Part shown: positions 7,107 through 48,926 of the stretch, in pieces
Position numbering within the stretch: position 1 is the first letter of the stretch
How the letters are laid out: each line of letters begins with the position of its first letter
NCBI GenBank assembly: GCA_036630325.1
Contig: CP142731.1
Span: 620,001 to 684,000 of the forward strand
Direction: 5' to 3'
Source of the DNA: Vairimorpha necatrix
Lineage: Eukaryota
Length of the DNA: 64,000 nucleotides
Notes under the pieces: generated by a model
What the model was told of the DNA's origin: nothing
What the model saw: only the letters and a program-made list of their open reading frames with translations
The model's database searches: none
Position numbers and translations under genes: made by a program

Positions 7107-7179
7107 GGTGCCCTTAGCACAGTGGTAGAATGCAATGCTTCCATTGAGCAATGGCTGGGTCCGATTCCCAGGGGCTCCA
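7107..7179 (+). ncRNA. tRNA-like head (Pol III A/B boxes), probably the 5' end of a SINE rather than a functional tRNA
   Basis: Acceptor GGTGCCC/GGGCTCC, D-loop AGTGGTAGAA, T-arm CTGGG-TCCGATT-CCCAG; irregular anticodon arm; no oligo-T terminator. Confidence 0.75.
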
Positions 7180-17093: not shown

Positions 17094-19020
17094 TTTTATT
17101 TACCCTCATAAAAATTTTATTTATATTTTACATGTTTATTTACACCACAAGAAAACACTGTGAATTAACAAACTTAAACAATTGAATAAACAAATTTCTT
17201 AAAACAAACATACGAGTATTAAAAAAATATTATGATAACTTTGATTGCTTTTTACTTATAAGAAAAAATTAGAATGTTCAAAGTCGATTTTCCATGTCAT
17301 ATAAATCCTATTGTTGGAATGAAAACATAGGTTTATTTATTATAAAATATTTAAAGAACAACATGTCAAATGTCTCAGAAAGGCCAATGCGTGATTTGAC
17401 ATGTGTTACACTTCCTATACTAACCTACCTTAAAAGCTTAACATGATTTTGACTTGTCATAACCCTTTTTTCCATTATCAAGCATCACTTCAAATGAATT
17501 TAATCGCAGTTCTACAACCGTTCCTTTTTCTTCCCATTTTGGTTTGAATTTTTTTCTAAACGGTAGAATTAAATAATACCAAACTCTACTTTCCACCTTA
17601 ATGGCATTCTGTTACCGGAATTAGCTTTTTACTAGTGTCGTTTTCTCGTCTGTAAACATCCAAGTTTTTAATTGCTTGCTCCTAAAACTCTTTTTTATCT
17701 TTTTGGAGATGCATTCCTTCTTTATATCTATCTTATTTGAAGCTCTTCCTGTAAAAAGTTCTCGCTGCACACCCTATTGCCCTAGGATATGATTGCATAT
17801 AGACTCTGACTACTTTAGGAACTCCTTTTACCCAATCAAATTTCCTTAAATTCTGTAACCTTCCTTAACTTTATGGATAAAGTTCTATTAAACATCTCAA
17901 CAAGCCCCGTAGTTGTAGGTTTATTAGGTGAGCCATGTTTCCCTTGAATTTTTTTGGTCTTCGCATATTCCTCACATATATTATTTTTGAATTCTTTGCC
18001 ATTATGAAAAAAATAGATTTTTTCATACCATACTTCCTGATTATATGTTTATCTACAAAATAAATAACCGTGTTCTTGTCTTTTGCATAAATCGGCACCG
18101 CCTTAGCAACTTTCAAAAGGTGGGGAATCATTGTCATAAGAATTTATATCCTTGCTCGTTTTCTCTCAAGGGCCCTAATATGACTATTTCCTAAATAATT
18201 CCTATTGTCTTTGATACTAATACCACCATATCTCCGAATTTCCTCGGAGGCTTTTCTTTTTGACACGTTTCACATTATTCTACGTATTTTTCATGTCTCT
18301 GCCTAAATTCTTCCAAGTATATTTTCGACCAATATTATATTTCATATTCTGTTTTGATCCATGCCCTGATAAATCATGATTAAATTTTTATAATACTAAC
18401 CTACTATCTGTTTTGATTTTTTTTCTTTTGTATTGAATTTATTTCTAAAACAGTCTCCTCATGTTTTTTAAATTCTCTGCTTAGGTGATTTGTATAGTTT
18501 GATGGTCCCGTAATGTATTCAATATCGAAATCATATTCTTGTAGCAGTAATGACCATCTAGCCAACCTAGCTTTTACATTAATAGACTTAAACAAATATT
18601 CCAAAGCCTGATGATACGTTTTTAATGTAAATTTTCCTAATAATAGATATTCTCTGAGGTATTGAATCGATTTTATAACTCTAGCAGCTCTTGCTCAGTA
18701 GTGGAATGGTTTTTAATAAACTTTAAGCAATAGTTGTATTACCCTGTGGTATTACGACCACATGTAAAATTCCATTATTCTCAAAATGGAATTTCTTAAA
18801 TAACTTAAAAAAAAATTCGTTTTCTCCCCAACAAAAAGAAAAAAGAGATGCAGACAAAGGACACAAACAATAAACGATTTATTTATAAAAAAGCTCAAGA
18901 AGTCTATTATAAGTAGCTTACTAGAAGCCTACTATCAACGAGGGTTCATCCCTCGTGACCACCTCAAGTTGAATTCAACGAGGAAAACTCATATCAAAGA
19001 TCAAAAGAAAGAAAAAGAAC

Positions 19021-19369
19021 TGTGATGTATATTACTACATCACATGGACAGCTGCTAAAACCATCAGCTGTCACTTATGTCTAAGGACATGTCAAGCATT
19101 TCAAATGACCTGTCAAGATGAGTCACACAAACAAACAAACAAACGAAAGTTGGATGGTCGTTACTACATTCGTAAGTACGCCAATGTTTGTGTTTAGTGT
19201 TGACAAGAAATAATAAATTAAAAATAAACTATAAAAGAAAGTCTGTCTGTGAAGGGTATGGTATATATGGAGTATAAGAGAAATAGAGAAACCATCAATA
19301 AATTATATAATATTAAAAATTATTTAGAAAGCTATTTTAAATATAGCAAAGTCCCGTCTATACAGGACA
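19021..19369 (+). mobile_element. Solo LTR C (349 bp)
   Basis: TG...CA ends; 5-bp TSD agaac on both sides. Confidence 0.85.
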
Positions 19370-20033
19370 AGAACATACAGAATTTGAAAAAATATACAAG
19401 GAACTGCAGTTAAGAATAAAGTAAAAATTTATAACATTTATGAGATCCAACAAGATTTAACCATAAATCAACTCCAAAAATTTGAGATGTTAGCTAAAGC
19501 AAATGATTAGAATGACGAACAAATGGCTTTGATTTACATGGTTTTCATGCACGATCCAAGAAAGGATTATTTATCATCAGATTCTTATGTTGCATTAAGA
19601 ATGTCACTGTTAAATTTTATTTAGCCATCGGAACAAAAAAGACGTGCTATACGTAAATTAGATAATACGAGCCAAATAAGTTATTTTAGTATTAAAGAAT
19701 ATTTGAAACAATCAAGGAAAGACTTAACAGTTATTCATATCATAATGATCATAAAAAGAGAAGCTCTGCATAAAATGAAAGAAGTGATTCTAAAGAGACT
19801 AGGAGATTTCACACATTTAGAATTAACAAGACAAAATATGATCAGTTGGAAATCTATATAATTTATATTTACCTTGTTCTAAAAGAAAATAAAATTGTAA
19901 CTTAAGTCGAGAAACACAATTACCCATTATGAAAAAGAGAAATTCGATAATAACAGAAATACTCAACTTAATAGCCCGAAATGGTGTTAACTTCATAGGA
20001 GTAACTGTACTTATGGTATTAAGCGTTGCTACG

Positions 20034-23000
20034 TGCCATGTCTTGGCGGTACCTTGTTGGTTTTTAAAAAGGAAATGTAAATAGATTTACAAGTTGAAGA
20101 GTAATTCATATTTATTTAAAAATAATTTTCTTAAATAGTTTTTTCTGAATCAAATCAAATATAATTGGTTACACGAGTACCAATTAAAACATTGATCTGA
20201 AACAACTATTTCCTTGAGTATAATTGGTCATAGTGAGGGTATGACAGTTTCCCCCACCTTAGCCGGCCTTACTCTTTTGATATTTACCAATGTAAATTTA
20301 TCGTCTTCCAGAACCTTCAACTGATCCCCTTGTATAGATTCCACAATAAAAGGACCTAGCCATTTGTCCTCGAGTTTTTCTTTTGCGTTTACATTCTTAA
20401 TGTAAATATAATCACCTTTAGCAAATTTGTGACCGATTATTCTAGACTTGTTTAATTTAGCATTATCTTTAGCTGTTTTTGTATGTATGTTTTGGATTAT
20501 ACTTCGAGTGTCAAATGATAAATTTCGTTTGAAGGGATCGAGTGGACTATATTTAAACCTAAACTCAAATGGAGATAACCCGGTTGTTTTATGAGCAGCG
20601 TAATTTAAGGCTCTAAACGCTAATTGAATCGTCTCGCTTAAAAAGTTTCCTTTATTGATTCTTAGTATCGTAGCGATGGTTTGGTTAATCCGCTCACTGA
20701 TGCTATTTCCCGTAGGATTATATGGAGAAGTAAGAATATGCTTGATTTTATACGCTTGTAAAATATTTTCAAATTTTTGCGATATAAATTGTTTACCCCT
20801 ATCTGAAAGTAGAGTTTGCGGGATGGGGCACTGTTTAAGCCAATTGTTTTCGAATGCCTCAGAAACTGCTGCTGCGGTAATCTCTGGAAGTATAATTAGT
20901 TCTGTCCATCGTGTCAATCTGTCTGTGATTCTTAGTATGTAAAATTTGTTTTCAACTATATTTGACTTAAACTCGTCTGAGCGAAATGGACCTATTATGT
21001 CCGTAGATATATCTTTAAATGGCGTGTTTGAAGAAAGGTTTCCTTTTAGTTCTCCATAGTTTGCGCGAAAGTTTTTACTTGTTTGACATTTAAAGCATTG
21101 CTGACTAATATTTTGAATGCTTCGTTTAACATTATTTCACGTTAGATAAGTTTTTATGGAATTATAAAGCTTAACTTCTCCTGGGTGTCCTAAATAGTCA
21201 TGAATTCGCTTTAAATATGTTGTAAATATAGTATCTGGGAGGATAAGTCGGTTTACATTGTCTGATATAATGCCCGAATCATGGAGTATATATCTTTGTG
21301 GTGAATCTGCTACGCTTTCTTGCAGTTTAGAATCTTGCAGTTGTTGTTCTAAGATTTCTTTTAGGTTATATTTAAAATTTCCAAAAATGTAGTCCATTAG
21401 TGCACAACACCTTGATAAGTGATCTGGAACTACGTTTGTTTCTCCTTTAATATGAGTGATTGTGTAATCATATTCGTCAAGTAATAGTTTCCAGCGTTGA
21501 ACTCGTTTATTCAGGGCTTCTGTTGTAAAAAGTAAATTTGCGTTGTCTGTCTGGATGTGTATTTTTAAATTAAAAATGATTTGCTTAAAGTGTCTGAGTG
21601 ATTTAATTACTGCTAGAAATTACTTTTCCATAACCGTGTATCTTTTTTCGGCTTCTGAAAATTTGTAACTATAAAGTCCTATAAGGTTTTCGTCTTGAAG
21701 TAAAGTAGATCCTAATCCCTCTTCGGATGCATCTGTAGTAAGTAGAAAAGGTTTTTTGTAGTCGGGATAATTTAACATTGTTTGTCGTTTGATCTCCGAA
21801 ATAATGTTCTTTACTGAAGCATCTTCCTCTTTGGTCCACGAAAATTTGCTTTTCTTTGCTAGTTTGTTGGTCAAGAATGCTATTTTACTTGAAAGATTTT
21901 TGATATAAGGTCTGAACCAATTAATGAATCCAATAATTTTCATCAAGTCTTTCTTCGTTCTTGGGTTTTTTTTATAGTAAATTTATCAACCCGGGAAATG
22001 TCTGGTTTTATTCCTTTAGATGAAATTATATTTCCTAAATAGGTTACTTCTGGCACAAAGAAAGTGGATTTTTCAAAATTAACTGATGCGCCTGCCTTAC
22101 ATAGAAGTGATAATACAATTTTAAGATGTTCTTCATGGTCTTGTTGACATTTAGAATATATTAGTACGTCGTCTAGAAAAATTTTTACAAATTCGAGATG
22201 ACCCAAAAGGTCGGACATACATCGTTGGAATTCTCTGGGCGCATTGGCAAGCCCAAAAGGCATTCTTAGGAATTCATATTGTCCCCATGGAAGCACAAAC
22301 GCCGTTTTGTGAACATCTTGTTTAGCGACTGGGATCTGGTAATAGCCCATATTTAGATCTATTTGTGAAAAAATAAATGCTTCCTGTAATGATCGTAATT
22401 GTTCATGAATATTTGGAAATGGGAATGCTTGTTTTACTGTTACTGAGTTAAGTTTTCTGTAGTCTATTACTAACCGAATTTTCCCGTTTTTCTTCAGAAT
22501 AGGGAATGCCGGTGATGCGTAATGAGACGTGCTCTTTTGGATTATCTTTAGTTTTAAAAGATTGTCAATTTCTTGCTTGAGTGGTTCTTGTATGTTTATG
22601 GACACTTGGTAAGGTTTTGAAAATACTGGAGTATTAGTAGTTGTTTTTATCTGAAAACCTTGCAAAGGTAGTTGCCCAAGTGACGGATTGTTTTCTTGTA
22701 CGTCTTTTATGTATGATTTAATAGAATCTGGAATATATGTACTGTCGTCTTCTGTGATCATTTTTGTTTTAGAGTAAATGATATAGTCTGGATTGTTTAT
22801 CCAATCTTGATAATCTTTGTTCGTAAATTGAAACCTCTTATTCTGAATATAAATAGATTTTTGGTGATAGTCTATTACTGTATTGGTATTATTTAAAAAG
22901 GGTCTTCCCAATATACAGTCCAGAATGAGATCGTCGAGTACGATTAAAATAACTCTTTCTTTAACGCTTTCTGATTGTTTTATTGTTAAATATACTTCGA

Positions 23001-24230
23001 CGGCCTCGTTAGTATTCGAGGTAATACCGTTTCCATATTCGATTCGCCTGTTTCTGACTATAAGAGGGGTAAGTTCAAGTTGTTTTACCATTGATCTACT
23101 CATATAGTTGCTGCTTGCTCCTGTGTCGAATGATAGGGTAATTTGGGTTTGGTTGACATTTCCCAGTAGTTCGGGCAACCCAATTGGGGTATCTGGTTCT
23201 TTAAGAATTAAATTTTTATCATTTCTCTGGGTAACGCTTCCCTTAGAGCTGTTTAGCGCTCTACAATCTTTCGTGTAATGTCCACGGCTTTTATGAAATG
23301 TACAAAATGGTTTCTGTTGGTTGTGTTCTTTTTTATTCTTCATGGATTTAAAATCCAATTTAACACATGGCTCTTTTCCAAGGTTAATAATTGTCTGTTC
23401 TATTTCCTTAATTTGATTCATTATGGATATAGAATCCCTTAGATTAATCTTGGCCATTTCTAATTTCGTTGTTATATCTAAACCTTGGTAAAAATACTCA
23501 GATATTCTACTATTCATATCTTTCTCGGAGATTCTTAAACACCATTTTAGTTTCGTTGTAAGGTCTTTAATTCGATTATGATATTGTTCGATATATGTAA
23601 AATCATTCTGTTTTGTTCTTTGGATCGCATCTAAGTACCAATGGGAATCCTGTTCGGGATAGGCGCTGTAAATTAGCGCAAGAAAATGCTTTTCTATGTC
23701 CAAAATTTTCTTCTTTGGAAGTATATCTAAAAGCGAAGGTGTAACTACTGAATGCAGCACGGCAATTGAAAGAGATGCTGACCATTGGCATTGTTCCATG
23801 GTTTCTTTGAACTCTGAAGTCCATTGAAAAATATCCTGTATTGTTAAATCGTTAAGTTCTGTGATAGACTTTGAAAGTTGTAACGAATTTGTAGGATCGG
23901 GAGAAAAGGTAAAAGAGTACTGTTTAAAGTCTTTCTTTATTTTTGACAGATTTGAACCTGGTTTGTTAAAGCTCCCTGCATGAATAAAATCTTCTTTGTC
24001 GGCGTATGACGTCATAATGCCATGTCTTGGCGGTACCTTGTTGGTTTTTAAAAAGGAAATGTAAAAAGATTTACAAGTTGAAGAGTAATTCATATTTATT
24101 TAAAAATAATTTTCTTAAATAGTTTTTTCTGAATCAAATCAAATATAATTGGTTACACGAGTACCAATTAAAACATTGATCTGAAACAACTATTTCCTTG
24201 AGTATAATTGGTCATAGTGAGGGTATGACA
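20034..24230 (-). mobile_element. Full-length Gypsy element D
   Basis: 213-bp LTRs (20034-20246, 24018-24230; 1 mismatch seen); TSD ctacg; PPT ggtgggggaaac; gag CCHC-type knuckle, PR FDTGA, RT FLDD, RH and IN, with a few stops/frameshifts. Confidence 0.97.
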
Positions 24231-24976
24231 CTACGCCCTACAGAATAAAAAAAGATTGCTTGAATTTGCAGATCATAAGGATAAAAATATGATTATAAAA
24301 CAACGTGGCTAATGTCCCGAAGACATTACTGTAATTAAAAATAGGTAATAAGGATGCGAAAATGATATTAGATAGCGGATCAAGAAGATATATAATTCTA
24401 AAAGAGCAGTTATGAATTCAATTAAAGAAAGAAGAAGGTGCGCAAATTGAAGCCATAATTGGAAATAATGAAACAGAAGAATCAAGTGAAATAATCAATA
24501 CTGTTGTTACGATAAAAGAAAACCCCTTTGAAGTAAAATTTTGCGTTTTAGAAAAATTCCCCGTTAATTTTGTTCTAGGAAACGAATTTCTTGACATATT
24601 GTGCAAAGTTAGATTACGCCGAAGGAACGGTAGAATTAGATGGACTACGAAATGACATGGTACATAAAGCAGGAAATGCGGAAGAATTGCTAGATAAAGA
24701 AATAGTTAATAAATTATGTCAGGTTAGCGAAAGCAAAGAATAATAAACTATTAGACTTCTATATTAATGAAAACAAAAAATTTACCTTTATGAAAGCAAA
24801 CCTAGCTTCGTTTAATGTAATACGACCAGTTTTAAAAACAAAGAAGATTACCTATACAGTTTCATTTAAATATATTGAAAAAGCGAAAATGGAAATTAAA
24901 AGACTTTTAGATGCAGATATAATTATAAAAAAGTTTTTTTTGATACAATAAGTTCTGCATTTTTCATAGAAAAGAA

Positions 24977-26074
24977 GGTGCTTCTTTGGTATGCGATCAG
25001 ATTTTTTTTTTAAAAAAAAATTCTGACCCCCTAAAAATGGAAAATAGTGACTTTAAAATTTCTGATCGCATATCAAAGAAAAGCACGTAAATAAAAATAA
25101 GGCAATACAAGGGCTTTTCTATGGTATTGGCGACTGTTTAAACTCATTGCTTGAATAAAAGTCTTGAAAGAGCAAAAGACATGCTTTAAATGCAATGAGA
25201 TTTCAAATTTGTTTCATATAAGGAGAGAGAGGTTAAAAGAGTGGTATACAGGTGTTCTAATTATAAATGAAGAGCTAAAATACAGTTAAAAACAGAAGCA
25301 AGTCACCTTTATATAATTTTTGTGGATTAATATTTTTAATTTTGTGTAGGAGCAGTTATTTTACTTTAGAAGCAAAACTAGGAGTTTCTTCATCGACAGT
25401 TTCCGATGCAAAAAAAAGAATTAGAGAAATTTTTAAAAACAAAATTTCTAAGTGGCTTATTATTGGTGGCCAGCGAAAAATTGTTAAGTTGATGAGTCTG
25501 TAATTTGTAGAAGAGATAAAATAAGAAATCCAACAAGTTGTGACGATATAATCCCTGATACCGTTTGGATACTAGGTATAGTAGAAGCATCTAATCCTAC
25601 GAACTTTTACATTACAGTGGTGGATAATAGGAACACGAATGTTTAACAGTTGCTCTAATAGGTAAAATAAGCGTTGGTTCGATTTTACATAGTGATGGTC
25701 ATCCGTGTTATCCAAGTGTAGCACGAAATCTTTGTCTTGAACAAAAGGTAGTAAACACTCTATCGGGTTTAAATCTGCAGATGGTACTCATACCAATAAC
25801 ATTGAGAATGTATGGTCGCAGCATAAATCTGAAATGACCAAAGAACATGGAGTTAAGAGTAATGAAATTGATTCATGGCTCAATGAATTTATATTTAGGA
25901 AAAGTTTTTGTAGAGGGGACAATTAAAAGGTGTTTCCCGACTGTTATGTTGATTAATTATATAATTTACTCAATTAAATCAAATTTATAGTATTTTTAAC
26001 GTTTTTTCATATTTTTTTCATTTTTTTCCTTTACAAGGGGGTCTTGGTGTCCGATCGCATACCAAAGAAGCACC
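24977..26074 (+). mobile_element. Merlin transposon E (pseudogenised)
   Basis: TIR ggtgcttctttggtatgcgatc; TSD gaaaagaa; HSDGHPCY and HTNNIENVWS remnants; related to 9764-10870. Confidence 0.93.
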
Positions 26075-26346
26075 GAAAAGAAAAATAAGGATTTGCGTTT
26101 AGTAGTAGATTATAAAGAAGTAATTAAAGCCTTGCAAGATGGCCTATAAATTATACCCAAAATTGAGGATTGTCTAACAATAATGGGATCTAACAAATTT
26201 TTTACGCAGATTGATTTGAGTAACGGATTTAATCTGATAAAAATAGATGAAAAATCAAGAAATATACATCGTTTTTTTTTTATTAGGACAACAGTTGCAA
26301 TACAAGAGAATTTCCTTTGGGATTAAGCCCGGTCCAAAATTATTTC

Positions 26347-29300
26347 TAAACATTTATTCTAGAATAGGGGCTATAAATAATTATTATTTCACTCAACATC
26401 CCCCTCATTCAAAATAATCCTCTACTATTAGCTTAAGTTGCGAGCCATGTCGCTTTATAGTTTTATTATGGACCTTAACGTTATAAGAATTATTTCCTAA
26501 AATATTAATAATTATACCTTGCGATTCCAATCTAGGTTTCCCCTTTGTTAAATCGGTTTCTCTTCTAATTATAACTCTATCTCCCTCTTTAAAAATAAAT
26601 TCAGCTCCTCTTTTCTTCTGTCGTTGGTTGAATTTTACGATTTCTTCGAATTGTTTTAGTTTAATCTCCTGAGCTCTCTTAGGATTACATGCTTCGTCTG
26701 GCGACCTGCCAAGAGCGGAGTGTCTAACATTATTGTATACATCTAGTACACGCTTAGTTTTTGTCTTCAAATTTCCAAAACTATTATCTTTATATATACC
26801 TTCCTGTATTGTCCTATTAAATCTTTCTATTCTTCCGTTTGATTGGTGATGAAAAGGGGAAATATAATGAATTTTAACATTATTTCTCGTTGCCCATTGT
26901 TTTACCTCAATACTCAAATTTTCTTTTGACTGATCAAGAATTAGTATTTTAATCTTTATGTCATTATAAACTTCATCAAAAAATTTCACTGGCTTATTAC
27001 TCTCTCTAGTAGTAATGACTTTAGCCCATGCTTTCCTTGTAAAATAGTCGATCGCCGTAATTATATAGCTTCCATTGATTGGTCCTATAATATCGGCAGC
27101 TACCTTTTAGCCAGGTTCGTATGCTGTCACAAATATAAATTTTTTTCCTCTTTGTGGATTGTACATCTTACATCTTAGACATTTATTAATTTCCGTTTTT
27201 ACCATATGCGACATATCTTTCCAATGATATTTTTTCCTTAATTCATTTTCAATAACTTTTGATCCTCTGTGAACTAATTCTATATGTTTATTCCTTATGA
27301 TAGACCTTTTTTCTTCTTCGCTAAATTCAATCATATTTATTTCATCCGTATTTAACTCATTAAGATAAGATCTTGACAAACAATCGACGTGAGGAATATC
27401 TGTCCCCTTTTTGTACTCGATCGTGTAATTATACTCACTCAATTTATCAAGCCACCTTTGTATACGTAACGATTTTATTTCGCCTTTATTTAGGACCTCT
27501 AGAGCTTTGTGATCAGTTATTACTTTAAACTCATTTCCATATAAAAAATATCTAAAATTTTCCATTCCCCATAGGACACCCAAGCATTCTTTCTCGCTGA
27601 TACTGTAATTTCTTTCCGCTGGAACCAATCTTCTAGAAGCGTACGCGATTGGGTACACATGCCCTTCATTTTCTTGTGACAAGATCGCTCCCAGACCAGA
27701 GTCACATGCATCCGTTTCTAATATGTAAGGTTTACTAAAATCTGGCTGTTTAAGCACACTGCTCGACAATACAATTTTCTTTAATGTATTAAAAGCAGCA
27801 TCCTGTTCCTTCCCCCAATTAAATTGAATATCATTTTTTGTAAGATCATATAAACATCCTCCGATTTTTGAACAATTAGAAATAAATTTTCTATAATAAT
27901 TAATAAGTCCCAGAAATTCTTGCAGTCATTTTTTATTGATTGGTCTTTTCATATCGTTAATTGCTTGGTCCCGTGTAATTTTTGGCTTAATTTCGTTATA
28001 TGCTATTAAATGTCCCCAAAAGGTAAGTTCTTTAACCTTATATATTGTTTTATCCTCATTAATACCTAAGTTATAGCTTTTAAGCTTTGTTATGATCTTC
28101 TCATAATTAAAATCATGTCCTTCCTCGTTTTCTCCAAAAACCAGTATGTCATCCACATACACGAAGCAACTTTTCCCTATTTCTTCTTGTAAAACATCAT
28201 CTATAAATCTTTGAAAAATTGCCGGAGCATTTTTAAACCCCATTGGCATAACGTTCCATTCATATAATAGGTGCTTAAATCTGAAATCGGTCTTATATCT
28301 ATCTTTTTCCGCCAATTCTATACAAAAAAATGCATCTTTTAAATCCAATTTACTAAAATATTTTTTCCCACGAAGCCCGTATAAAAGCTTACCAATGTGT
28401 GGTAAGGAGTAATTATCTAGCTCTATCAATTTGTTTAACGAAACTAAATTTGTAGTAACTCTTATAGAATCATCTGGTTTAATTACTGGTCTTAAATTAT
28501 TCAACCACGTTGATTTTGATTTTCTTATGTAATTTTTCCTTAGTAGTTCTTTGATAGATTTTTCCACCCCTTCTTCTAACTTTTTTGGTAGTGTATAGAC
28601 CTTTTCAACAATTTTTTCTCCTTTTATCGTATTTATTTCACAAATTCTATTGCTAGACACCCTTTTCAATATTTCTTGTAATGTCTTTTTTCCTACAAGT
28701 ATTTTAAATTTTTCCACCTTAGGGAATATAAAAAATTTAGAACGATAACTTTTACCACCATAAGAGAAATCTAATATCACATATTCTGTAATCCCGAATC
28801 TTTCTTCTAAACATGTAAAAAAATATATTTCCTCTGTACTTCTATAAATTTTTAAAGTTAGTTCAGAAGCAGCCTTTTTACTCATAAAATTATAGTAAGA
28901 ACCCGAGTCAAAAGTTACATTAATTTTTTCATTATAAACATATATTAAATCTTTTTTATTGTTAATAAAGTTTGCATCCAACATTCCGCCTTCTTGGTGG
29001 ATCTCATTTATCCTTTTATACTGTAGTTGTTTACCATCAGTTCTTTTCTTCTTCGCAAAACAGTCTTTAGCAATATGCCCATTTTTGTGGCAAAAATAAC
29101 ATGAATATCTTTTGTTGATGTTATTGGAGGCAGGTTGTCTTATTTTTGTTATATCGTTATTTTCCTTTTCCATTTCATCAATTATTTCAAGGAATTCTTT
29201 ATTAATTTCATATTGCCCTGTTAAAACCATTTTTATAGCCTTATATCTTGGTAAAATTCCATTTCTTATGATCTTCCTTTTATCAGTATTTCTGATATTT

Positions 29301-29680
29301 TCCTTTAGACATTTCTTTTCTACATCTTTGATAAATTCCACAATACTTTGGTTTTCTTTTTGTTTTTGAGTATATAATTCGTACAATCCAGTACCGCAGT
29401 CAAATTCCGTTTCTGCCAACTCTTTCCACATTTCAAATGTTAATGAACATTTCCGTTTCTCCTTCATTAACTTACTATGCCAATCTAGTATCTCAATGTT
29501 GGCTTTATGAATAAAATAATCAATTTTTTCCTCATTTGATAATTTATTAAAACTGGAAAGTAAAGAAGCTCTTTGTAGCTCCTGCAAGATATTTTCACTA
29601 CTAATCTCTGTTTTCATATTCTCCACCATAAACATTTATTCTAGAATAGGGGCTATAAATAATTATTATTTCACTCAACA
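26347..29680 (-). mobile_element. Full-length mini Gypsy element F (3334 bp)
   Basis: Identical 52-bp LTRs (26347-26398, 29629-29680); TSD atttc; PBS TGGTGGAGAAT; PPT gaggggga; CCHC, FDSGS, YVDD, TDAC and IN motifs. Confidence 0.97.
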
Positions 29681-30780
29681 ATTTCAAAGGAATATTTCAA
29701 ACATTTTAGGAGATTTAGATAATGTATTTGTTTTTATAGATGATATTGTGATTGGCGCTACTTAAAAATTCGCACCCCCCTAAAAAAAATTACATTGACC
29801 AATTAAATTCATATAAAAAAAAATATTTTTAACCCTTAAAATCATATTTAAAACAATATTTTTATGAAAATATGAATTTACAAAAGTTAAAATATTTAAA
29901 AAAACAGTTATAACATATTATTTAGTTCAAAAATTTAATTACTTTAACATAGAAAAAATTTCAATTATTTTTACGAAGGCTAATTTGATTGTAAATGGTT
30001 TTGAATATTCTATATTTTCTTTTTTCCATTTAAACTCATCTAACCAACATTTAATTCTTATTTTATTTATTCCTCCACGCTTTCTATAATCATGATTAAG
30101 ATGCGACCACATATTTTCTACATAATTTGTTTTGTCCTTCTTCATCACAAAATCCCATAGAGTGACTTACCACATTATGTTGAGAATTAAATTCACTTAT
30201 AGCATGTGGATAGGATGGATAACCATCAGTTACTATATCCGTGCCTACTTTTACATATTTTTTTAATACTAGTAAAATCGTTTCCCATTTTCTATTGGGT
30301 ATTAGTTCCACAAAAAACTCTCTACAATTTCCTTCCAACACACCTCCTATTATCCACTGAATTCCAGGTTCAGAATTTAATCGACTAGACGGATTCGATA
30401 CTATAATTCCATTACAAATAGCTGTTTCGTCTATTTGTATCCTCTGACCAACTCCACCTATCGTTGTAACAACAGTAGAACACTTGGAAATTGTTTCCAT
30501 TATTATTTCTTTTACAGAAATATATGTTGGTTCAGAAGTTTCACACATGTTGATGGCCTGAAAATTAGTATATGACAAACACCAACAATAAATGCTTCGA
30601 AGAATTTTTTTAAATTCAATATCTAAAGATTCAAATTTAGAACCTTTATTTAATGAACATCTTCGTTTACAAATTTTTTTGCTACATTTGTACCCCTTTC
30701 CTTGAGAAAACAAAGATATGTTTTGAATAAACATAATTCCTTTGCACTGATCATTAGTACAGGGAATACGGGGATATAAC

Positions 30781-32843
30781 TGTGGTGTTTCCACCAGGAA
30801 GATGGCCATAATGTAAATAGCATTTAAGAATGCTTCTCCCTGCAATATTGTAAAGTATATTTTTATTTAAATTATGTTTATTAAATTGCCCCTGTGGGCT
30901 TTCATAGTTCCTCATGTGAGGGGGTAGGGTGTAAGATACCCTCCCGTTATCGTTGTAGACTCTCTGTTCTCTTCTCATCTAAAAATCGATGGGTCAAAAT
31001 AAAAGAAAATATTTATAGCAAAATATTTTCTAGAAAATTCATTTGGAGGGAAAATAAAATAAAAATAAGTAATGTGGTAAATAATACCACATACTACCTC
31101 CTCCACAGAGTCAACAATGTAGAATAGGCGTTCCTCCGTAATCGCCAAATGATTCTTTCCATAATTTTTTAGTATTGGTTGGGCTTGATGTTTGTGACCT
31201 CAAATCAAGGTTAGAATTCAATTCATGATACTTCAGCTTCTTACGTACACGTTTTCCTCCATATCTACTTCTATCAAATAGCATCTGCTGTGTCCTATTT
31301 CCTCGCCAATGTTTTCTAAATGCGCCACGATTTAATTTATTTTCAATCTTATCATTACCATTTTTAGGTAATGATAAAGCTTTCGGCTGCAGGTGGTTAT
31401 CTTTAACATTTTCAGGCGGCTTACTTCTTTCTTTGTTATATAATTGACATTTTCTTGAATATACACCTTCTAATGGTAGTGTATTCCCTGTCTTTTTCAC
31501 ACAGTTAATTTTAATATTAGCAACTTTTGCTTGTTCAGCTTCGATTTTTTTATTTGAGACACCTTCTATTCCATACCCCGTTCGAATGATATTTTTCTTT
31601 ATTGGGGGTAGTTGGTCGATAGTAATGTTTTTAATTGGTTTCTGAATTATAAAGCAATTACTCTCGTTGTCGTTTTTGTTTAATATTTCACCCTTATTAT
31701 TATAGTTGTTGAGAATTTTCCTATTATCTGTAATTTCTCCATTTTTGACATCTAGTCCTTTCATACGGCAATCTTGTGTATTATGTGATCTCGCTCGATG
31801 TATAGAGCACCATTTATTATTATTCATGGGGGTATTTGATACTTCCCGATTATTATTATAATTTCTCGTAAGATCAACGGGTCTTATATTCATGTTAGCT
31901 AGTGTTCCCTGCAAGATAATATTTTCTTCCAACCCTTGCAGATATCTAACTAATTCAACTGTCGGGCAGTTGTCTAATCGTTGTTTATAAATTTCAATTG
32001 CAGTAAAACTGCTCAATCCTCTATTAAATGCTTCATATAATCTGTTTTCAGACTCTTTCTTGCTCAAGGCATTCATAATACCATAAATTTCAATTATACT
32101 CGCCACTTCATTATAATAGTCGACTATATACTTATATTGAACCTGTTTTACGGTTTCCAACTTTATCAGTAATAACCTGGCATCGCTTTTAGGATAAATT
32201 TCTTCAATTATCTCTTCTCTCAGTTTCCTATAGCTGTTTCTTGTTAAGCTATCTTCAATTCTATCATCGTCAATTAAAGAATGGTAAATTATACCCATCT
32301 GTTCATCCGTCCATTCATTGGCAGTAGCCAATGCTTCAAATTTCTCCATATGTTTTAAATTACAATCTCTTTTAATGTCTTTAATTTTATAGATTTTTTC
32401 TTGGATGGTAATTGGAGTTCCAATTACTTTTTTCTCAAAGGTTACACTTTCCTTTGGAACATTAACTTCACTCAATAGTACTTGGTTTTTTTTCTTTATT
32501 GTAAGTGAATCTCTAACACTTAATGAATTCATTGTGGTGTTTCCACCAGGAAGATGGCCATAATGTAAATAGCATTCAAGAATGCTTCTCCCTGCAATAT
32601 TGTAAAGTATATTTTTATTTAAATTATGTTTATTAAATTGCCCCTGTGGGCTTTCATAGTTCCTCATGTGAGGGGGTAGGGTGTAAGATACCCTCCCGTT
32701 ATCGTTGTAGACTCTCTGTTCTCTTCTCATCTAAAAATCGATGGGTCAAAATAAAAGAAAATATTTATAGCAAAATATTTTCTAGAAAATTCATTTGGAG
32801 GGAAAATAAAATAAAAATAAGTAATGTGGTAAATAATACCACA
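30781..32843 (-). mobile_element. Gag-only non-autonomous LTR element H
   Basis: 311-bp LTRs (30781-31091, 32533-32843; 1 mismatch seen); TSD ataac; PPT ggaggaggtag. Confidence 0.95.
31111..32730 (-). CDS. gag: Intact Gag-like protein (539 aa) starting inside the 5' LTR
   Basis: Retrotransposon gag helical core and WCSIHRARSHNTQDC knuckle; no PR, RT or IN motifs. Confidence 0.85.
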   Translation of the reverse strand: MRREQRVYNDNGRVSYTLPPHMRNYESPQGQFNKHNLNKNILYNIAGRSILECYLHYGHLPGGNTTMNSLSVRDSLTIKKKNQVLLSEVNVPKESVTFEKKVIGTPITIQEKIYKIKDIKRDCNLKHMEKFEALATANEWTDEQMGIIYHSLIDDDRIEDSLTRNSYRKLREEIIEEIYPKSDARLLLIKLETVKQVQYKYIVDYYNEVASIIEIYGIMNALSKKESENRLYEAFNRGLSSFTAIEIYKQRLDNCPTVELVRYLQGLEENIILQGTLANMNIRPVDLTRNYNNNREVSNTPMNNNKWCSIHRARSHNTQDCRMKGLDVKNGEITDNRKILNNYNNKGEILNKNDNESNCFIIQKPIKNITIDQLPPIKKNIIRTGYGIEGVSNKKIEAEQAKVANIKINCVKKTGNTLPLEGVYSRKCQLYNKERSKPPENVKDNHLQPKALSLPKNGNDKIENKLNRGAFRKHWRGNRTQQMLFDRSRYGGKRVRKKLKYHELNSNLDLRSQTSSPTNTKKLWKESFGDYGGTPILHC

Positions 32844-33172
32844 ATAACAAGTTGTTCTTCAATCCGTAGTCGATTGCCCTGTCATTATCAGTGAAAATAG
32901 GATTGTATGGATTGAATTGAAGCATTTCGTCCATCATACTGTTCATTATAAGGGATAGATAAAATAAAAAAATTTCACGTTCAAAATACCATTACTTAAA
33001 AATTCGCACCCCCGGAAAAAAATCCTTTAAAATTTGATTTTATCTCATTTTATACCAAATAATTTTTTTTCAGTGAACGTATTTTTTAGGGGGGTGCGAA
33101 TTTTTAAGTAGCGCCTTGTGATTTATAATAAAACAAAGGAAAGTCATTTAATTTTCTTAGAAAAAATACTAG

Positions 33173-33385
33173 TGCCATGTCTTGGCGGTACCTTGTTTGT
33201 TTTTAAAAAGGAAATGTAAATAGATTTACATGTTGAAGAGTAATTCATATTTATTTAAAAATAATTTTCTTAAGTAGTTTTTTCTGAATCAAATCAAATA
33301 TAATTGGTTACACGGGTACCAATTAAAACATTGATCTGAAACAACTATTCACTTGAGTATAATTGGTCATAGTGAGGGTATGACA
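33173..33385 (-). mobile_element. Solo LTR of family D
   Basis: 213 bp, near-identical to the D LTRs; TSD actag. Confidence 0.95.
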
Positions 33386-34125
33386 ACTAGAAATATTATT
33401 CAGCAAAAATGTCCAATAAATTTCGAAAAATCGAAGTTTTATACACATGAAATTGAATTTTGGGTTACAAAATAAAACACGAAGGAATTTTCCATAAAAC
33501 CAATTATTTGAATAATAGAATATTCGAGAAGAAATAAAAACAAAAAAAAATTTACAAAAACTGTAGGAGTAATAAACTGGTACAGAAAGTTTATTCCAGA
33601 TCTATCGATATGGATTAATAAATTAACCGATATGTTAAAGAACAAGAATGAATATAAAATCAAAGTAACGACCGAAATGAGAAAGACAATTGACAGAATT
33701 AAAGAGTGGATTTTGTGTAATCACAAGTTATTATTTCCCGATTACGATAGTAAATTTACATTACAAGTTGTCGTAGCGAAATAGGGTTAGGAAGTACGCT
33801 AAAACAAAAGGGTAAAATCATTAGATATTATAGTAAAAAATTTTCTGGTCCAGAATTAAATTACAGTATTGTTGAGAAGGAATTTTTGGCAATAGTTTTA
33901 TCTATGCTCAATTTTAAAAACATAATCCAAGGATCTTATGTAATGATTTATACTGATAGTAAATATTGTATCTATGAAAATAAAATAGAAACATCAAGAA
34001 TTAATAGATGGAAATTGTTGTTAAATGAATTTAGTTTTTCACTAAATCATATAGATGGAAATAAAAATTGTATGGCATATAACCTATCAAAAAATTTCAT
34101 TGGAATCGGAAATAATGAAAACAAT

Positions 34126-34431
34126 TGTGGTATTATAAATACCACAAATTATTTATTTTTATTTTATCAATTTTCCCTTTTTGGAAAATAGACCATTCGA
34201 CCGGTCTATTCCAAAAATCAAATATTTATTTCCTTTTTGCCCTGACCCCCACAAAATTATGAGACAAGACAAAGATCAGTACCCTTGGAATCTACGACCA
34301 AAAAAGGGCCTCAGAGCCAGGGACCAGTATCCCATTACGGATGCCCAACGAGGCTTTAATCAATCAAATAAAACGTATAATTTAATAGAACTATATTTGT
34401 CCAGAGGTAGCTCCTCTGGATTGCGTCAACA
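34126..34431 (+). mobile_element. Solo LTR L (306 bp)
   Basis: TGTGG...CAACA ends; TSD acaat/ataat; same architecture as the H, B and I LTRs. Confidence 0.75.
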
Positions 34432-34552
34432 ATAATCACGAAAAAATTATTAAACTAAACCAAGAATGTTGTCTTAAAGATAAAGGTGGTGACTTTATAG
34501 TTGATAAAGAAAAGCGCTACATAGTTAAATTTAACTAAATAAAGAAATTTAT

Positions 34553-37014
34553 GGTGTCCGATGAATTCACCGACAGCAATTCACCGAAAAATTGAAATAT
34601 ATATTTTTTATAAGGATATTTATGATATATATATATTTCATTTTAAATTTTTTCTTTTATGTATGTATCAATATCTTGTGCAATATAGCATTTGGATGTT
34701 AGGTACATGACCGTTTGGAACCCGCTTTGGGAAAATGAACCCGCATTGGGAAAATGAACCCGCTTTGGGAAAATAAACCCGCATTGAAATTTTAAAGGAC
34801 CCCCCTTTAAAAAAATGGCAAAATTGGCAAAAACAATGTTTGTTGAGGCAGATGAGGTTTTTAGTGATGTAATGTATTTATACGTGGAATATAAAGAAAA
34901 GTTTATTTTGGAAACATTTGATGCTTAATCGGCGTGCGCCTTGCTCGTTTCTGTAACTAGTAGAATACTGCTTTTTTCTTGAGGTGATACAAGAAAATGT
35001 ATAACCTGTTTCTATATGATCTCTAATCAATGGGCAGCATATGATGTCACATTAGCTAAGCAAAGGGATGGAGCACAGTACTAAGAATCACTCCATAAAT
35101 GCCGTAACCTCTAGCGATTCTGAGTCACAATATTATATAATTTAGTTGGTTTCGGCTCATTCCTATAAGAGATATTTGATCTTAACATAAACAAAGAAGA
35201 ACACTATGAGTACCTTTTACAGTTTCACTAGGCTTTTCAAATTCCCAAAAATTAACGGATAAATTGTCTTCTGTCATTATTTAAAATAAATCATCAAGTC
35301 CTTTTTTTATAACTTTTTTTTATTTTTCCCTTTTTTTAAATTTTTCAAAGCGGGTTTATTTTCCCAAAGCGGGTTCATTTTCCCAATGAGGGTTCATTTT
35401 CCCAAAGCGGGTTCCAAACGGTCATGTACCGAATATTAATATATTTATATCACTTTTTGAATTAAAAAATGTAAAAAGTATCAGAATGTTTATAAAAATA
35501 AAAAAATAATATTAAATATAAAAATCTATTTAATTTAATATTAAAATGTCAGTTTATGGGCAATGGCACGAAAAAATTCTATAATATTTTCTCGATGAAA
35601 ATTGGACACTACATTTAGAATTCTCGTTCTACAATCGCGATACTTTTTTTTTAGAAGGAGGAGCTATAAAGCCAGACGGTAATTGTTCTATTCGAACTTC
35701 ATTTAGAGATTGTTCCTTTTTTAAGCAATTTATAAGCTTACAAATATTCAGGAGAGTACCACCAGCTTGCGACTCGAACCCACGATGTCAACCTTCGACC
35801 GAGTTTTTGGTCCTCGGAGGACCATCTATTGTTCTGGAGTACATATTCCATATGTGCTATGTAAATTTCGGGGCTTGACGTCGTCTTCGGTTTGGGCGGC
35901 CAATCCAAGTATCTTCAAAATAATCTAAGACGGCCAGAGCTTCGATGGGCAGTATTCTGTCACACAATTCTTCAAAAAACTATAACAACAAAATTGAAAG
36001 GCACAAATGCGATCATTGCCAGCGATCTTATTTGCAGTGCAAATTCTGGATCTGCATCGTACAGTAGTTTGAATCCATGATTTTAAACGGCTCGAAAAAT
36101 GCACTGTGAGAAATGAAAAAAGCATCCTTTTACACTTGCACCAAGAAACTGTACTGAAATAGGATTCATCATGGCCTTTTCAAAATCTACAGTTATGGAT
36201 TGCGCTTTAATGATGGTTCCAAATCTTTTAAAATGCAAAGAAACTTAGAATATGTTTGCTCTAATTTATTTGGCAATAGAGCGAAGACCAAGGAAATAGA
36301 AGCACTTTGTTTTAGACCGTGAATTGTGTACAATTGATGAAATAATAATGGTACGATTTTAAAGGTGTCATCTGCGTACCAAAGTTGACTATCTGCCAAA
36401 AGCCGTAAATTGTGATTCGTCGAAAAAATTAAAATTCTGTTTTCATCTGCTCCAGAATCATACAGTAGAAAGGGGTCACCTCTTGTCGTTTCTTTAACTT
36501 CGTCTGTAAATTCAATTTCATGCTGCGAATTTAGGAGTGCTGGCTGGATTCTGCAATTTGTCGAATATAACGAACGCTACGTTTCATATTGTCGATCGAT
36601 GGCAGTTTTGGAGCTGCAGCTTGGCTGCATAGGGACAAACAATTTGATATAATTGATTGTGGCGCTTCTCTAGAGGGTTTTTCCAAGTCTCGAACATTTG
36701 CATATATTTTATCGGCTTCGACTTTAGCAGCATCTCCAGAATGATTGTGTTCGACGCACGCTTTAATTGCCCCATTACACATTGTAATCACTCTGTCTTG
36801 AACTTGTACTTTTGATAATATTCACATTTCCAATATATTTTGGATTTTTCCCATCCCTCTTTTTCTACAAAGAAAAGATGACCTTCTAGAATTAATTTTT
36901 TCTTCCCCTTTTCAAAGAGTAAATTTTCGATCTGCATTATTAAAATTTGGGGTTCAGAATTAAAATGTTTGAAAATTTAAAAAAAATGTACAATTTTTAC
37001 GTAAAATATACATC
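34553..37014 (-). mobile_element. Second MULE (FLYWCH + MULE transposase pseudogene, ~35540-36937)
   Basis: YWKCE..HNH, LWYADDTF, QLYTIHG, LLPNK motifs; TIR-like end at 34553; other end not found. Confidence 0.8.
34702..35430 (+). mobile_element. Non-autonomous Merlin derivative (MITE-like) with 19-bp subterminal repeats
   Basis: TIR ggtacatgaccgtttggaacccgc; unit gaacccgcWttgggaaaat x3-4 at each end; TSD ggatgtta/gaatatta. Confidence 0.85.
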
Positions 37015-40000
37015 TGTGGTACCCACCACATAATTTTTACATTTCTTCTATTTTTTATTTATCTCAATATTTAACAAAAATGAATTTTCTAGAAATTATT
37101 GTTTATAAATAAAAAATATTCAAAAAAGGGTACGACAAAATGATAATGAACAAGAATAATATTAATTACAACAAAGGCAACATAGGAACCACAAAGATGA
37201 GTTCCGCCCCTAATAAATCATTTAAAAAACAAACTTACATCCACTCCCTGTTGGAGCAATATTTTCGTTTTGGCTCCCTCACTAGAGGGTACAACAATTT
37301 GAATATAAATGATAAGAAAGCGCAACAAGACGAGAAAAAATTTAATAAAAAAAGGTACAATTTGAAGTCCCAATACCAGGGCAAACTAAAAAATTTATAG
37401 AAGAAATCGAAAAAATAGATAACCTAAGCCAAGCTGACCTATTAGGCTGGTTTAAAAAATTCGATAAAATCAGGATTGGAAATAAATGGAGCGACGAAGA
37501 CTTGCAGATAATTATGAGCCATTTGATTACAGATATAGACGTTGACACTGACATTTTTACCAAGAAGTATATTACTATCAAAGAGCTGCTTAGAAGTGGT
37601 CATCAAGAAATTAGAAAAAAACATATCAAAGTAATTACACCACAATCAAGGAATTTGTACAAGAGATAAAGACATGTTTGAAAGTATATGCCTCATTGAC
37701 AAAAATAAACAAAGCTGAATATACGAGAAGCCTACAAGAACATTTCATCAATAATTTGGGAAGAGCTACAAAGATGCAGCTACAGATTTTAAAAAAAGAT
37801 GATGATTTTGATACGATCGTTAATTATTTGACTCAAGTTGAGAAGAAGCTATTAAACTCGCAATTGGAAGAAGAGATCCAAAATTTGAACATTTCAAACC
37901 TACAATTAGAAAAATCAGGAGTATTTTCTAGCCAAAAGAGTTGGAAAGAAAATGGACGCGTCATCAAAGACAATATAAAGAATAATCTTACCCAGAGAAG
38001 AAGGATATAAAAAACACGAATATAGAAAATAGAATGAAAACAGAACGACATAATATTATGTTGCATGAACCCAAAGAGGTCATTCCGGATATATATGTTA
38101 AAATTAGATTAGATAATTCAGAAGAGGTATTGATTTAATAGATTCCGCATCAACAAGAAACATCATAAGGGAAACGCTAGTGGATAAGCTAAAACTTACT
38201 AAAGTAGAAAATAAGGAAGTTAATTTAAAAATAGGAAACAGTGAAGTAATTACATTGAGCGAGACAGTAGAAACGAAATTCAAAATTCCAGGAATACAAG
38301 AATCATTTAGATCGGAATTTTATGTGATGAATAACCCAGGACATCCTTTAATTTTAGGGAATGTTTTTCTAGCGAATAATGGTAGCATAATCGATTATGC
38401 TAAATACGAATTACGAGTGAGAAGAGAAAAGACCCCATTACTATATACGAAACAAACGGAAGAAGAAAAAATAACGGAACCAGACAAACTCTTTTTTTAA
38501 AAACTTTAATTATCAGAACGAAATTACACCCGAACAGGATTTTTTAAATAAATTACTTAATAATTACTTGTATCAACTGAATGTGAATCGGCCAATTAAA
38601 ATGAAACCAATTAAACTAAAATGTACGAACGAAGAAATAGTCACAGCGGTACATGACCGTTTGGAACCCGCTTTGGGAAAATGAACCCGCATTGAAAAAA
38701 TTCAAAAAAAGGGAAAAATAAAAAAAATTATAAAAAAGGGAAAAATAAAAAAAGGACTTAACGATTTATTTTAAATAATGACAGAAGACAATTTATCCGG
38801 TGATTTTTGGGAATTTGGAAAGCCCAGTGAAACTGTAAAAGGTACTCATAGTGTTCTTCTTTGTTTTGTTAGATCGAATTTCTTATAGAAATGAGCGAAA
38901 ACCAACTAAATTATATGGTGTTGTGAATTAGAATCGCTAGAAGTTATAGCATTTATGGAGGGTTTCTTAGTACTGTGCTCCATCCCTTTACTTAGCTAAT
39001 GTGGCATCATATGCTATCCATTGATTAGAGATCATAATAGAAACAGGTTATACATTTCTTGTATTACCTCAAGGAAAAAGCAGTATGCCTACTAGTTACA
39101 GAAACGAGCAAGGCGACTACTCTTCAGCATCAAATGTTTCCAAAATAAAATTTTCATTTATTTCCATGTTTAAAAACATTTCATCACTAAAAAGCTAATC
39201 TTCTTCAACAAACATTGTTTTTGCCAATTTTGCCATTTTTTTGAAGGGGGGTCCTTTAAAATTTCAATGCGGGTTCATTTTCCCAAAGCGGGTTCCAAAC
39301 GGTCATGTACCGTCACAACTTATAAAAATTACCCGGTGCCAGAAATATTTAAAGAAGCAGCATATGAAGAAATACAGCGATTATGTAGTGAAGGCATTAA
39401 AGAAAAGTCAGAAAGCACAATAACGTCTCCTGCATTCTTAATCTATGTGAAAAACGGCCAAGTCAGACTTGTTGTTGATTATAGATATATAAATAACTAC
39501 ATAGTAGATGAACCGTGTGCTATTCCTAATATTTTAGAAAGAATAAAGTCTATAGGATCAAAAAAGATCTTTTCACAAATTGATTTAAAAAATAGTTTTA
39601 ATCAAATCCCATTAAGCGAACACTCGAGACACCTAACCACATTCGTATTATTTAACCAAAGATTTCAATATACGAGAATACCTTTTGGGTTAAAGTTGGG
39701 TCCAAAATTATTCCAAAGTCTAATACAAGAAGTTTTGGCCAACATAAAAAAATATATTTGTGTACATTGACGATATAGTCATTTTTGCAGGTACTCTTGA
39801 AGAACATGGCCGAATATTAATCGAAGTCATTGATAAACTAGGGAAAAGTAATATATTAATTAATCTTGAAAAGTCAAATTTCTACAAAGATAGAACCACG
39901 CTTTTAGGAATTAACATCTCAAGTGACGGAATAGAACCAGTAGGAAAATATCTAGAACATCAGATGTTTAAAGCAAAAATAAAAAGAAGAAGCAACTGCA

Positions 40001-48700: not shown

Positions 48701-48926
48701 TCTACCATGAAATTTTTTATTTCTTCACTTCCTTCCATAAATATTCTCTGCTTCCACAAACTGATTTCTACTTCCTCCATCTCCAACCTATACATTATTC
48801 TTCTGACTTCCTTTAATAACTTTTTGGCCTCTAGACCACAGTCCACACTTGTAAACTGACGATTCGGTATCGCCCCCATGTCTTTATTTATCATAATGGG
48901 GATAGAAATTATACAAATATATCACA
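45737..48926 (-). mobile_element. Mini Gypsy element J (3190 bp)
   Basis: Identical 48-bp LTRs (45737-45784, 48879-48926); PBS TGGGGGCG (tRNA-Pro-like); PPT gagggggga; RT YMDD, RH and IN; flanks tatat/tttat. Confidence 0.95.

Follow-up and report, generated by a model that had tools for sequence, protein, structure and literature searches.

We analyzed a stretch of 64,000 nucleotides of the Vairimorpha necatrix genome (assembly GCA_036630325.1, contig CP142731.1, positions 620,001 to 684,000 of the forward strand), called the window below, in which all coordinates are given. It has a G+C content of about 30% and its content is nested transposable elements. Our subject is a group of Ty3/gypsy retroelements of this window, B, D, H, and I, in which a palindrome stands at the edge of the 5' long terminal repeat (LTR), in the place of a primer-binding site (PBS) of the tRNA type. 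An initial reading of the sequence (the original prediction) had proposed that these elements prime reverse transcription independently of tRNAs. The start of reverse transcription is a defining step of every LTR retroelement and, to our knowledge, few exceptions to priming by tRNAs have been described, of which only that of Tf1 is understood.

LTR elements and palindromic sites in the window

Pfam searches on several sets of open reading frames (ORFs) identified protease (PR), reverse transcriptase (RT), RNase H, and integrase (IN) domains in the order of Ty3/gypsy elements. Of 8000 candidates scored in a search with the polyprotein of D, 352 proteins reached E <= 0.001. The nearest named relatives, as the best of these 8000, belong to Microsporidia (Enteropsectra, Nosema granulosis, Dictyocoela, and Hepatospora), and further relatives lie on short contigs of a bacterial metagenome-assembled genome (MAG) labelled Clostridium sp. 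The features of the palindrome group are as follows.

18745 to 18966, plus strand: 5' LTR of B (TGTGGTA...CACCTCA), with an 82%-identical copy at 53051-53273; the homology stops at ..GACCAC
18968 to 18979, plus strand: perfect 12-nt palindrome of B, GTTGAATTCAAC, one A after the LTR end; it contains no ATG
20034 to 24230, minus strand: D, a Ty3/gypsy element of 4197 bp (gag-PR-RT, RNase H, IN) with an LTR pair and a target duplication
24005 to 24016, minus strand: perfect 12-nt palindrome of D, TATGACGTCATA, with the spacer T at 24017 after the LTR end GGCA
30781 to 32843, minus strand: H, a gag-only (non-autonomous) element of 2063 bp with an LTR pair, a target duplication, and an empty site
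32522 to 32533, minus strand: perfect 12-nt palindrome of H, AATGAATTCATT, beginning with the A that ends the LTR
33173 to 33385, minus strand: solo LTR of the D family, flanked by a 5-bp target duplication that belongs to it alone
37015 to 37296, plus strand: inferred 5' LTR of I, of which only the first 55 nt recur at 41564-41619, the 3' LTR being cut at 41619
37297 to 37310, plus strand: imperfect or decayed palindrome of I, ATTTGAATATAAAT, in which the aligned 12-mer is 37298-37309

The four sites lie 0-1 nt past a 5' LTR, in the orientation of their element. The palindromes were thus found where they had been described, within about 1 nt of the LTR end, three of them as perfect 12-mers and that of I as an imperfect one. 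The position of this end is exact in D and H, known to within ~4 nt in B, from the second copy of its LTR, and inferred in I by homology to an element from outside the window (L105), not by an LTR pair. The LTRs of D (20034-20246 and 24018-24230) are 213 nt long, 99.5% identical, and bounded by TG..CA, and the element is flanked by the 5-bp target duplication CGTAG at 20029-20033 and 24231-24235. Its domains are encoded on the minus strand, with PR and RT at 21943-24099, RNase H at 21137-21619, and IN at 20228-21136, in a copy whose reading frame is shifted near 21950 and interrupted by an in-frame stop at 21137. All three LTR copies of the D family end in ..GGCA and only the 5' LTR continues with T and TATGACGTCATA. 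Since the solo LTR has neither the T spacer nor the 12-mer, both lie outside the LTR. The LTRs of H (30781-31091 and 32533-32843) are 311 nt long and 99.7% identical, with the target duplication GTTAT at 30776-30780 and 32844-32848. In contigs of two public runs, position 30775 is joined straight to 32844, with 5 letters shared, which corresponds to the empty site. The near identity of the LTRs and the empty allele in the two runs, i.e., an insertion polymorphism, show that H was recently mobile. The ends of D and H are thus fixed by LTR pairs and 5-bp duplications, and in addition by the solo LTR (D) and the empty site (H).

The only protein encoded by H is Gag-like and shares the CHHC knuckle of D. 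An ATG at 32532-32530 (minus) opens its gag frame of 473 codons, and the ATG of D at 24015-24013 (minus), inside the palindrome, is in frame with gag. In B, a decayed gag homology starts at ~19388. The 12-mer of I has one G-T and one A-A position in the alignment of the family, with the ATG after it, at 37308, and represents a decayed relative of the sites of L105 and L009 described below. The palindrome group shows the marks of Ty3/gypsy elements: the order PR-RT-RNase H-IN (in D and its relatives), TG..CA termini, and a short target duplication. Purine-rich tracts, as read from the sequence, directly precede the 3' LTRs of D and H. None of the palindrome-group junctions that we read, those of B, D, H, and I included, has a TGG-type or tRNA-type PBS after the LTR, and five other LTR/PBS junctions of the window are of the TGG type, both in agreement with the original prediction. 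Its description of the LTRs of the four families as dissimilar holds only in part, as the terminus TGTGGTA..ACCACA and a motif of the promoter region are common to those of B, H, and I.

Relatives, phylogeny, and symmetry of the site

A scan of genome contigs led to four contigs of a single MAG, the bin deposited as Clostridium sp. (G001), in which a dedicated search gave 34 matches. From a scan of metagenome contigs we analyzed the best 80 of 471 loci, and a scan of IMG/VR returned no relative. The site at the LTR edge is carried by 11 elements from three sources, ten of them intact, the other being the decayed I. L001, which has 47% protein identity to D, continues after ..GGCA with 17 nt identical to D, namely T, TATGACGTCATA, and CGCC. 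The site of L007 is AATGAATTCATT, the same as in H. The other sites are GCTGATATCAGC (L002), GATGAATTCATC (contig C178, i.e., L004/L093), ATTGAATTCAAT (L105), TTTGAATTCAAA (L009), and TATGAATTCATA (L066). In these outside relatives the site always lies 1 nt past ..CA; on contigs with a single LTR, the end was taken from ..CA and homology, with no pair. L080 (TTTGACGTCAAA) was considered as a further case and rejected: the palindrome is found downstream of pol, between two ORFs, and the RT of L080 is not part of the clade. G001 contains at least 20 short contigs that are microsporidian-type Ty3/gypsy elements (L001-L004, L087-L114), and they are eukaryotic contamination of the bacterial bin.

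All six palindrome elements labelled in a tree of 93 RT rows are found in one clade of 11 rows (SH-aLRT 96). In a tree of 47 rows, a subset that we chose from the 93 plus six partial rows, a single branch (SH-aLRT 95) separates nine palindrome rows from eleven TGG rows, which represent ten elements, with 27 rows carrying no label. The nine rows represent eight elements (D, I, C178, L001, L002, L007, L009, and L066). Four further clade members (L003, L008, L017, and L024) and a fragment at 33760 have no visible junction, and H, B, and L105, which are without RT, are off the tree. This mapping, which the original prediction had called for, confines the palindrome to one side of a supported branch. 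The TGG-type sites recur across hosts (TGGTGGAGAA, TGGCGAC). The palindromes differ within a host, with three in the window and four in G001, and are shared across hosts by related families (D with L001, H with L007). This fits a primer encoded by the element and not a single host RNA.

The consensus of the site is NN-TGA-(AT/CG/TA)-TCA-NN, where the core is fixed and the outer and central pairs change jointly. By our count, there are nine different perfect 12-mers among these kindred elements. TGA and TCA are invariant in the ten intact elements, and in the alignment of 11 sites only the decayed I departs from TCA. Among the 66 cells of the six palindrome pairs, 64 are Watson-Crick, one is G-U, and one is unpaired, both exceptions being in I, a dead element. 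Three pairs vary on both sides (UA/AU/GC; AU/UA/CG; AU/CG/UA). The outer positions are variable yet complementary in 22/22 cells, and the central dinucleotide is self-complementary in every case (AT, CG, or TA). The sites have a covariation score of 0.458, when shuffles give 0.142 (0/500 reach the observed value) and slid partners at most 0.124. Hence, the observation that sequences differ while symmetry and position are kept is borne out by paired changes in 11 elements, and these changes are evidence for selection on the symmetry itself. A full duplex needs a self-complementary center and the loop of a hairpin does not, which points to a full duplex.

The window contains 59 perfect palindromes of at least 12 nt, nested ones in a TA run included. 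At nine LTR ends with two offsets, ~0.017 would be expected by chance and three are observed, so that the enrichment that the original prediction had proposed to check is strong. Palindromes of at least 10 nt with a TGANNTCA core occur five times in the window. Three of them are the sites of B, D, and H, and the other two (11766 and 15525) have, by reading only, no obvious LTR end adjoining.

Candidate primers for the palindromic site

The edge of the LTR marks the start of minus-strand synthesis. Since this synthesis must start there, the 3' end of the primer has to lie on the sequence next to the LTR, where alone it can anneal, and the palindrome is in the position of the PBS. In our preferred reading, to which we give a probability of roughly 0.5, the 12-nt palindrome would be the PBS of a compact clade of microsporidian-type Ty3/gypsy elements, and its primer would be the RNA of the element and not a host tRNA. 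The most likely primer is this RNA, either as a co-packaged copy or folded back on itself. Between these two, pairing of two packaged RNAs is favored because self-complementarity, center included, appears to be selected and because of the free energy of the homoduplex, predicted at -10.6 to -19.4 kcal/mol, when that of the hairpin of the 12-mer is 0 to -3.5 kcal/mol. In folds of the monomer, the palindrome is not in a loop. The sequences on the two sides of the site are also related: the terminal bases of U5 are complementary to the bases after the palindrome (GAC/GTC, CTC/GAG, GGC/GCC, GTC/GAC, CAC/GTG). At least three consecutive pairs of this kind, allowing a small bulge, are found in 10/10 elements with their own sequence and in 17/88 cross combinations.

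In this scheme, two co-packaged genomic RNAs would pair palindrome to palindrome in a 12-bp duplex, which the last U5 bases of each RNA would lengthen by 3-5 bp per side by pairing with the bases after the partner's palindrome. One strand would then be cut at the 3' edge of its own palindrome, like the RNA duplex cut by RNase H in Tf1, and the new 3'-OH would lie opposite position 1 of the partner's palindrome. Its extension through the 1-nt spacer into U5 and R would produce the minus-strand strong-stop DNA, and a single site would serve for both dimer linkage and priming. The position of the cut may be marked by the bulge that the terminal A and the spacer form. The original reading of tRNA-independent priming is thus partly supported, namely by the lack of a TGG PBS, the position, the symmetry, and the clade; the pairing of two RNAs, the cut, and the enzyme we infer by analogy with Tf1. 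More tentatively, dimerization and priming could be a single event, in which the cut co-packaged genome is the primer and the family-specific outer pairs are a code against priming across families, a possibility that we would not call probable.

Several points weigh against our preferred reading. Exact LTR ends are proven in 2/11 elements, those of the others being taken from ..CA and homology, and the elements are related, so that the shuffle statistics overstate their independence. The cofolds of homodimers use the 12-mer in 9/10 cases, which is nearly true by construction and adds little, because in that calculation any hairpin turns into a duplex. The conservation of the site may come in part from a coding or start-site constraint, because the ATG of gag lies in or beside the palindrome in most elements. 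The elements of the group are compact and without a leader, and the ATG at positions 2-4 of the palindrome opens gag in D, L001, H, L007, C178, and L066. It lies across the junction in L002 and after the palindrome in L105 and I, and in the TGG-type relatives it is supplied by ..CA followed by TGG. Likewise, the 17 nt identical between D and L001 also encode the same five residues. The ATG alone was rejected as the cause of the site, as B and L009 have TTG there and L105 and I have the ATG after the palindrome. Mechanistically, the termination of plus-strand strong-stop DNA is a difficulty if the primer is a long RNA (R-U5-palindrome), and no template bearing the site would be left if both strands were cut. 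Finally, a dimer of an element-encoded protein could bind a symmetric site.

In an alternative reading, which we find unlikely, the palindrome would be a signal for dimerization or packaging, or the site of a dimeric protein (Gag/nucleocapsid, IN, or a host factor), and a host RNA, e.g., a tRNA fragment, would prime on the first bases after the LTR. Palindromes drive dimerization in retroviruses and Ty1, the invariant TGA..TCA core could correspond to two protein half-sites, and TGACGTCA resembles a CRE-type site. Yet the junction sequences read contain no other candidate PBS after the LTR, the host primer would have to differ per family in one genome (three in the window, four in G001), and a fixed host partner leaves the complementarity of the 22/22 outer cells unexplained. 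Concerning tRNAs, elements such as copia and Ty5 have a site complementary to an internal part of a host tRNA. In the window, ARAGORN calls a tRNA-Met at 7107-7179, which falls below the gathering score of the Rfam tRNA model and could represent a tRNA in decay or a repeat derived from one. It is the only tRNA-like gene in the window and has at most 6 nt in common with any site; a search of the window with Rfam at gathering thresholds had no hits. In G001, the 76 tRNA matches are located in arrays characteristic of the bacterial fraction of this MAG. The 28 tRNA loci compared from these arrays gave chance matches of 7-11 nt, and the TGG-type positive controls were also unmatched, except for one 10-mer.

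A fold-back in cis, which we consider unlikely, would use the same RNA as our preferred reading in another geometry. The outer 4 bp of the palindrome would form a small hairpin on the helix between U5 and the downstream bases, and after a cut behind the palindrome its 3' half would prime on its 5' half. The priming of Tf1 is itself intramolecular. The flanking helix (10/10) and the palindrome together form an interrupted hairpin in the monomer folds of 7/9 elements folded. A precedent of form, which the original prediction did not have, is provided by the fungal GalEa elements, of the Copia superfamily, which according to Donnart et al. 2017 have a palindrome in the place of the PBS, its function left open; the published drawing shows this site as a hairpin that bulges where it meets the LTR (PMC5445492). 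Against the fold-back stand the weak hairpin predicted for the 12-mer alone (0 to -3.5 kcal/mol) and the behavior of the four central positions: they would be a loop, yet the pair 5/8 never varies and the pair 6/7 stays self-complementary through double changes. A cut in cis would also strip the template of its site, and the second strand transfer would then need another RNA.

Ordinary self-priming of the Tf1/sushi type, in which the transcript folds its first ~11 nt, which lie within the LTR, onto the site, is highly improbable. A match to the element's own 5' end had been named by the original prediction as a result that would tell against it, and it was mostly absent. The longest exact complement of the site in its own LTR measures 5-9 nt in 9/9 elements, no longer than in shuffles (45 to 488 of 500 as long) or in the LTRs of other elements. 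The energy of the duplex between site and LTR is within that of shuffles in 8/9 and falls below 5% only in L007, where a G-U-rich duplex of 10 bp at -10.5 kcal/mol is reached by 2/200 shuffles and speaks for Tf1-type priming. So do a 9-nt match in I (ATATTCAAA), which lies just after a TATA-like box, and an 8-nt match in H. The former includes the candidate that had been singled out (atattcaaa, ~37116), which does not stand out, its length being reached by 45/500 shuffles. The places of the matches are inconsistent relative to the TATA-like box, that of H lying upstream of it in a GAAttTTCtaGAA motif, and Tf1-type priming leaves the palindrome without a reason. Within 100 nt downstream of the site, the longest complement measures 0-6 nt in 10/10 elements, and the duplex energy is within shuffles in 9/10 (14/200 in L002).

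The odds that the sites are due to chance or annotation, i.e., to AT-rich palindromes or misplaced LTR ends, are negligible: in spite of the 59 palindromes of at least 12 nt in 64 kb and of the LTR ends of B and I not being exactly fixed, three sites are seen at nine LTR ends where ~0.017 are expected, the feature recurs in elements from other sources with the RT/RNase H-bearing ones on one side of a supported branch, changes are paired, and the look-alike L080 was rejected as not being at an LTR end.

Known systems and other features of the window

The dimerization initiation site (DIS) of retroviruses and PAL of Ty1 are short self-complementary RNAs that join two genomes, and subtype-specific palindromes limit heterodimers. 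The family-specific outer pairs could likewise limit heterodimers here, a comparison with DIS that has been made for GalEa (PMC5445492). Those palindromes are located in the loop of a hairpin or in another part of the leader and accompany a tRNA PBS, whereas here the palindrome is in the PBS position and there is no separate PBS.

GalEa offers both parallels and differences. Like the elements described here, GalEa elements are without a tRNA-type PBS, have a short conserved palindrome abutting the 5' LTR, LTRs bounded by TGT..CA, a 5-bp target duplication, and a single ORF (PMC5445492). Their palindrome is A+CTGATCAGT, the commoner form, or A+CTAATTAGT, followed by a second complementary sequence, and the commoner form has the TGA/TCA core (PMC5445492). 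The final A of the LTR is counted in the palindrome, as in H, and the other elements here have a 1-nt spacer. The authors predicted a larger hairpin with a bulge at the LTR junction and found no Tf1-type complement (PMC5445492). In contrast, GalEa are Copia elements of Pezizomycotina, and ours have the domain order and relatives of Ty3/gypsy and come from microsporidian-type genomes. The GalEa palindrome has 10 nt and no central dinucleotide, against 12 nt here. Its second sequence lies 12-41 bp downstream with a fixed A/A mismatch, when 0/10 elements here have a downstream complement longer than 6 nt. Two forms cover 85% of the GalEa families, whereas in our elements the outer pairs vary from one family to another.

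Tf1/sushi elements are also of the Ty3/gypsy type without a tRNA PBS, and their primer is encoded by the element, so that site and primer can change together (PMC5445492, PMC5006619); the RNase H cut of an RNA duplex is the step that our model borrows from them. Their PBS pairs with the first 11 nt of the transcript and is not palindromic, and the elements here have no such complement. Skipper of dictyostelids resembles our elements in being a Ty3/gypsy element without a TGG signature or an LTR complement, for which a novel self-priming was proposed, and differs by a degenerate polypyrimidine stretch instead of a palindrome (PMC5006619). A literature search that covered papers without their supplements returned no description of a palindromic PBS for Ty3/gypsy elements or for microsporidia, and the main text of the main survey of microsporidian transposable elements does not mention PBS, tRNA, or palindromes (PMC4202319). 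Because a Copia lineage of ascomycetes has a related palindrome with a TGA/TCA core at the same place, this mode of priming may be old or have evolved repeatedly, and it may be a third way for the LTR retroelements of the fungal lineage, beside tRNA and Tf1-type priming. With the elements described here, a palindrome at the primer site is found in two superfamilies that are unrelated to each other. H, small (2 kb) and recently mobile, would suit experiments, and the GalEa puzzle of 2017 becomes testable. Annotation tools that seek tRNA-complementary PBSs will miss or misfile such elements, for which NN-TGA-NN-TCA-NN after ..CA is a simple marker.

Some observations concern the LTRs and the gag start of the palindrome group. 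The gag frame is open upstream, into the LTR, up to an internal ATG, over 28 codons in D (24018-24099), 28 in L001 (1-115), and 66 in H (32533-32730). In Ty1, Gag starts in R/U5, and by analogy Gag may do so here. The pol stop codon of D lies 19 nt inside the 3' LTR. H (~32580-32600, minus) and L105 (LTR ~158-180) have a common U5 hairpin of the GCATTC-TYGA-GAATGC type, ~50 nt before the LTR end, which is a second self-complementary element in the leader. Palindromes of the TTCTAGAA type occur in LTRs just upstream of a TATA-like box, those of H and I reading GAAttTTCtaGAA.

31025 to 31038 and 32777 to 32790: TTCTAGAA-type palindromes in the LTRs of H
~37080 to 37093: TTCTAGAA-type palindrome in the LTR of I
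26355 to 26366 and 29637 to 29648: TTCTAGAA-type palindromes in the LTRs of E1, an element listed below

This motif presumably resembles a heat-shock element, and in its GAAttTTCtaGAA form it may explain the partial 8-nt match of the LTR of H to the primer site.

The elements of the window that served for comparison, with a TGG-type PBS, are the following.

26347 to 29680, minus strand: E1, PBS at 29628 (minus), LTRs of 52 nt, target duplication GAAAT
45737 to 48926, minus strand: E2, PBS at 48878 (minus), LTRs of ~48 nt
48926 to 52761, minus strand: E3, PBS at 52633 (minus)

E1 (~3.3 kb) and E2 (~3.2 kb) are complete-looking Ty3/gypsy elements with very short LTRs, those of E1 being 100% identical over their 52 nt. 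The usual lower bound of LTR length is roughly 100 nt, and these LTRs are far below it. One unit of E1 is circularly permuted in a contig of run X1. A change of the genetic code behind the in-frame stops of E1, E2, and D was rejected: the stops are a mix of TGA and TAA, which indicates ordinary decay.

Elsewhere in the window, fragments of a Merlin-type (IS1595-like DDE) transposase are found at 9868-10641 and 30096-30866 (minus). An additional RT on the plus strand (43101-44788) was unmatched in tblastn with a full-length polyprotein of the palindrome clade (P0003) and may belong to another class of elements. Between the palindrome of B and its gag homology, the segment 18990-19290 contains several nested inverted repeats and has a word depth of ~100,000 in run X2, where other places have tens. 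It probably represents a small repeat of high copy number, similar to miniature inverted-repeat transposable elements, that was inserted in B.

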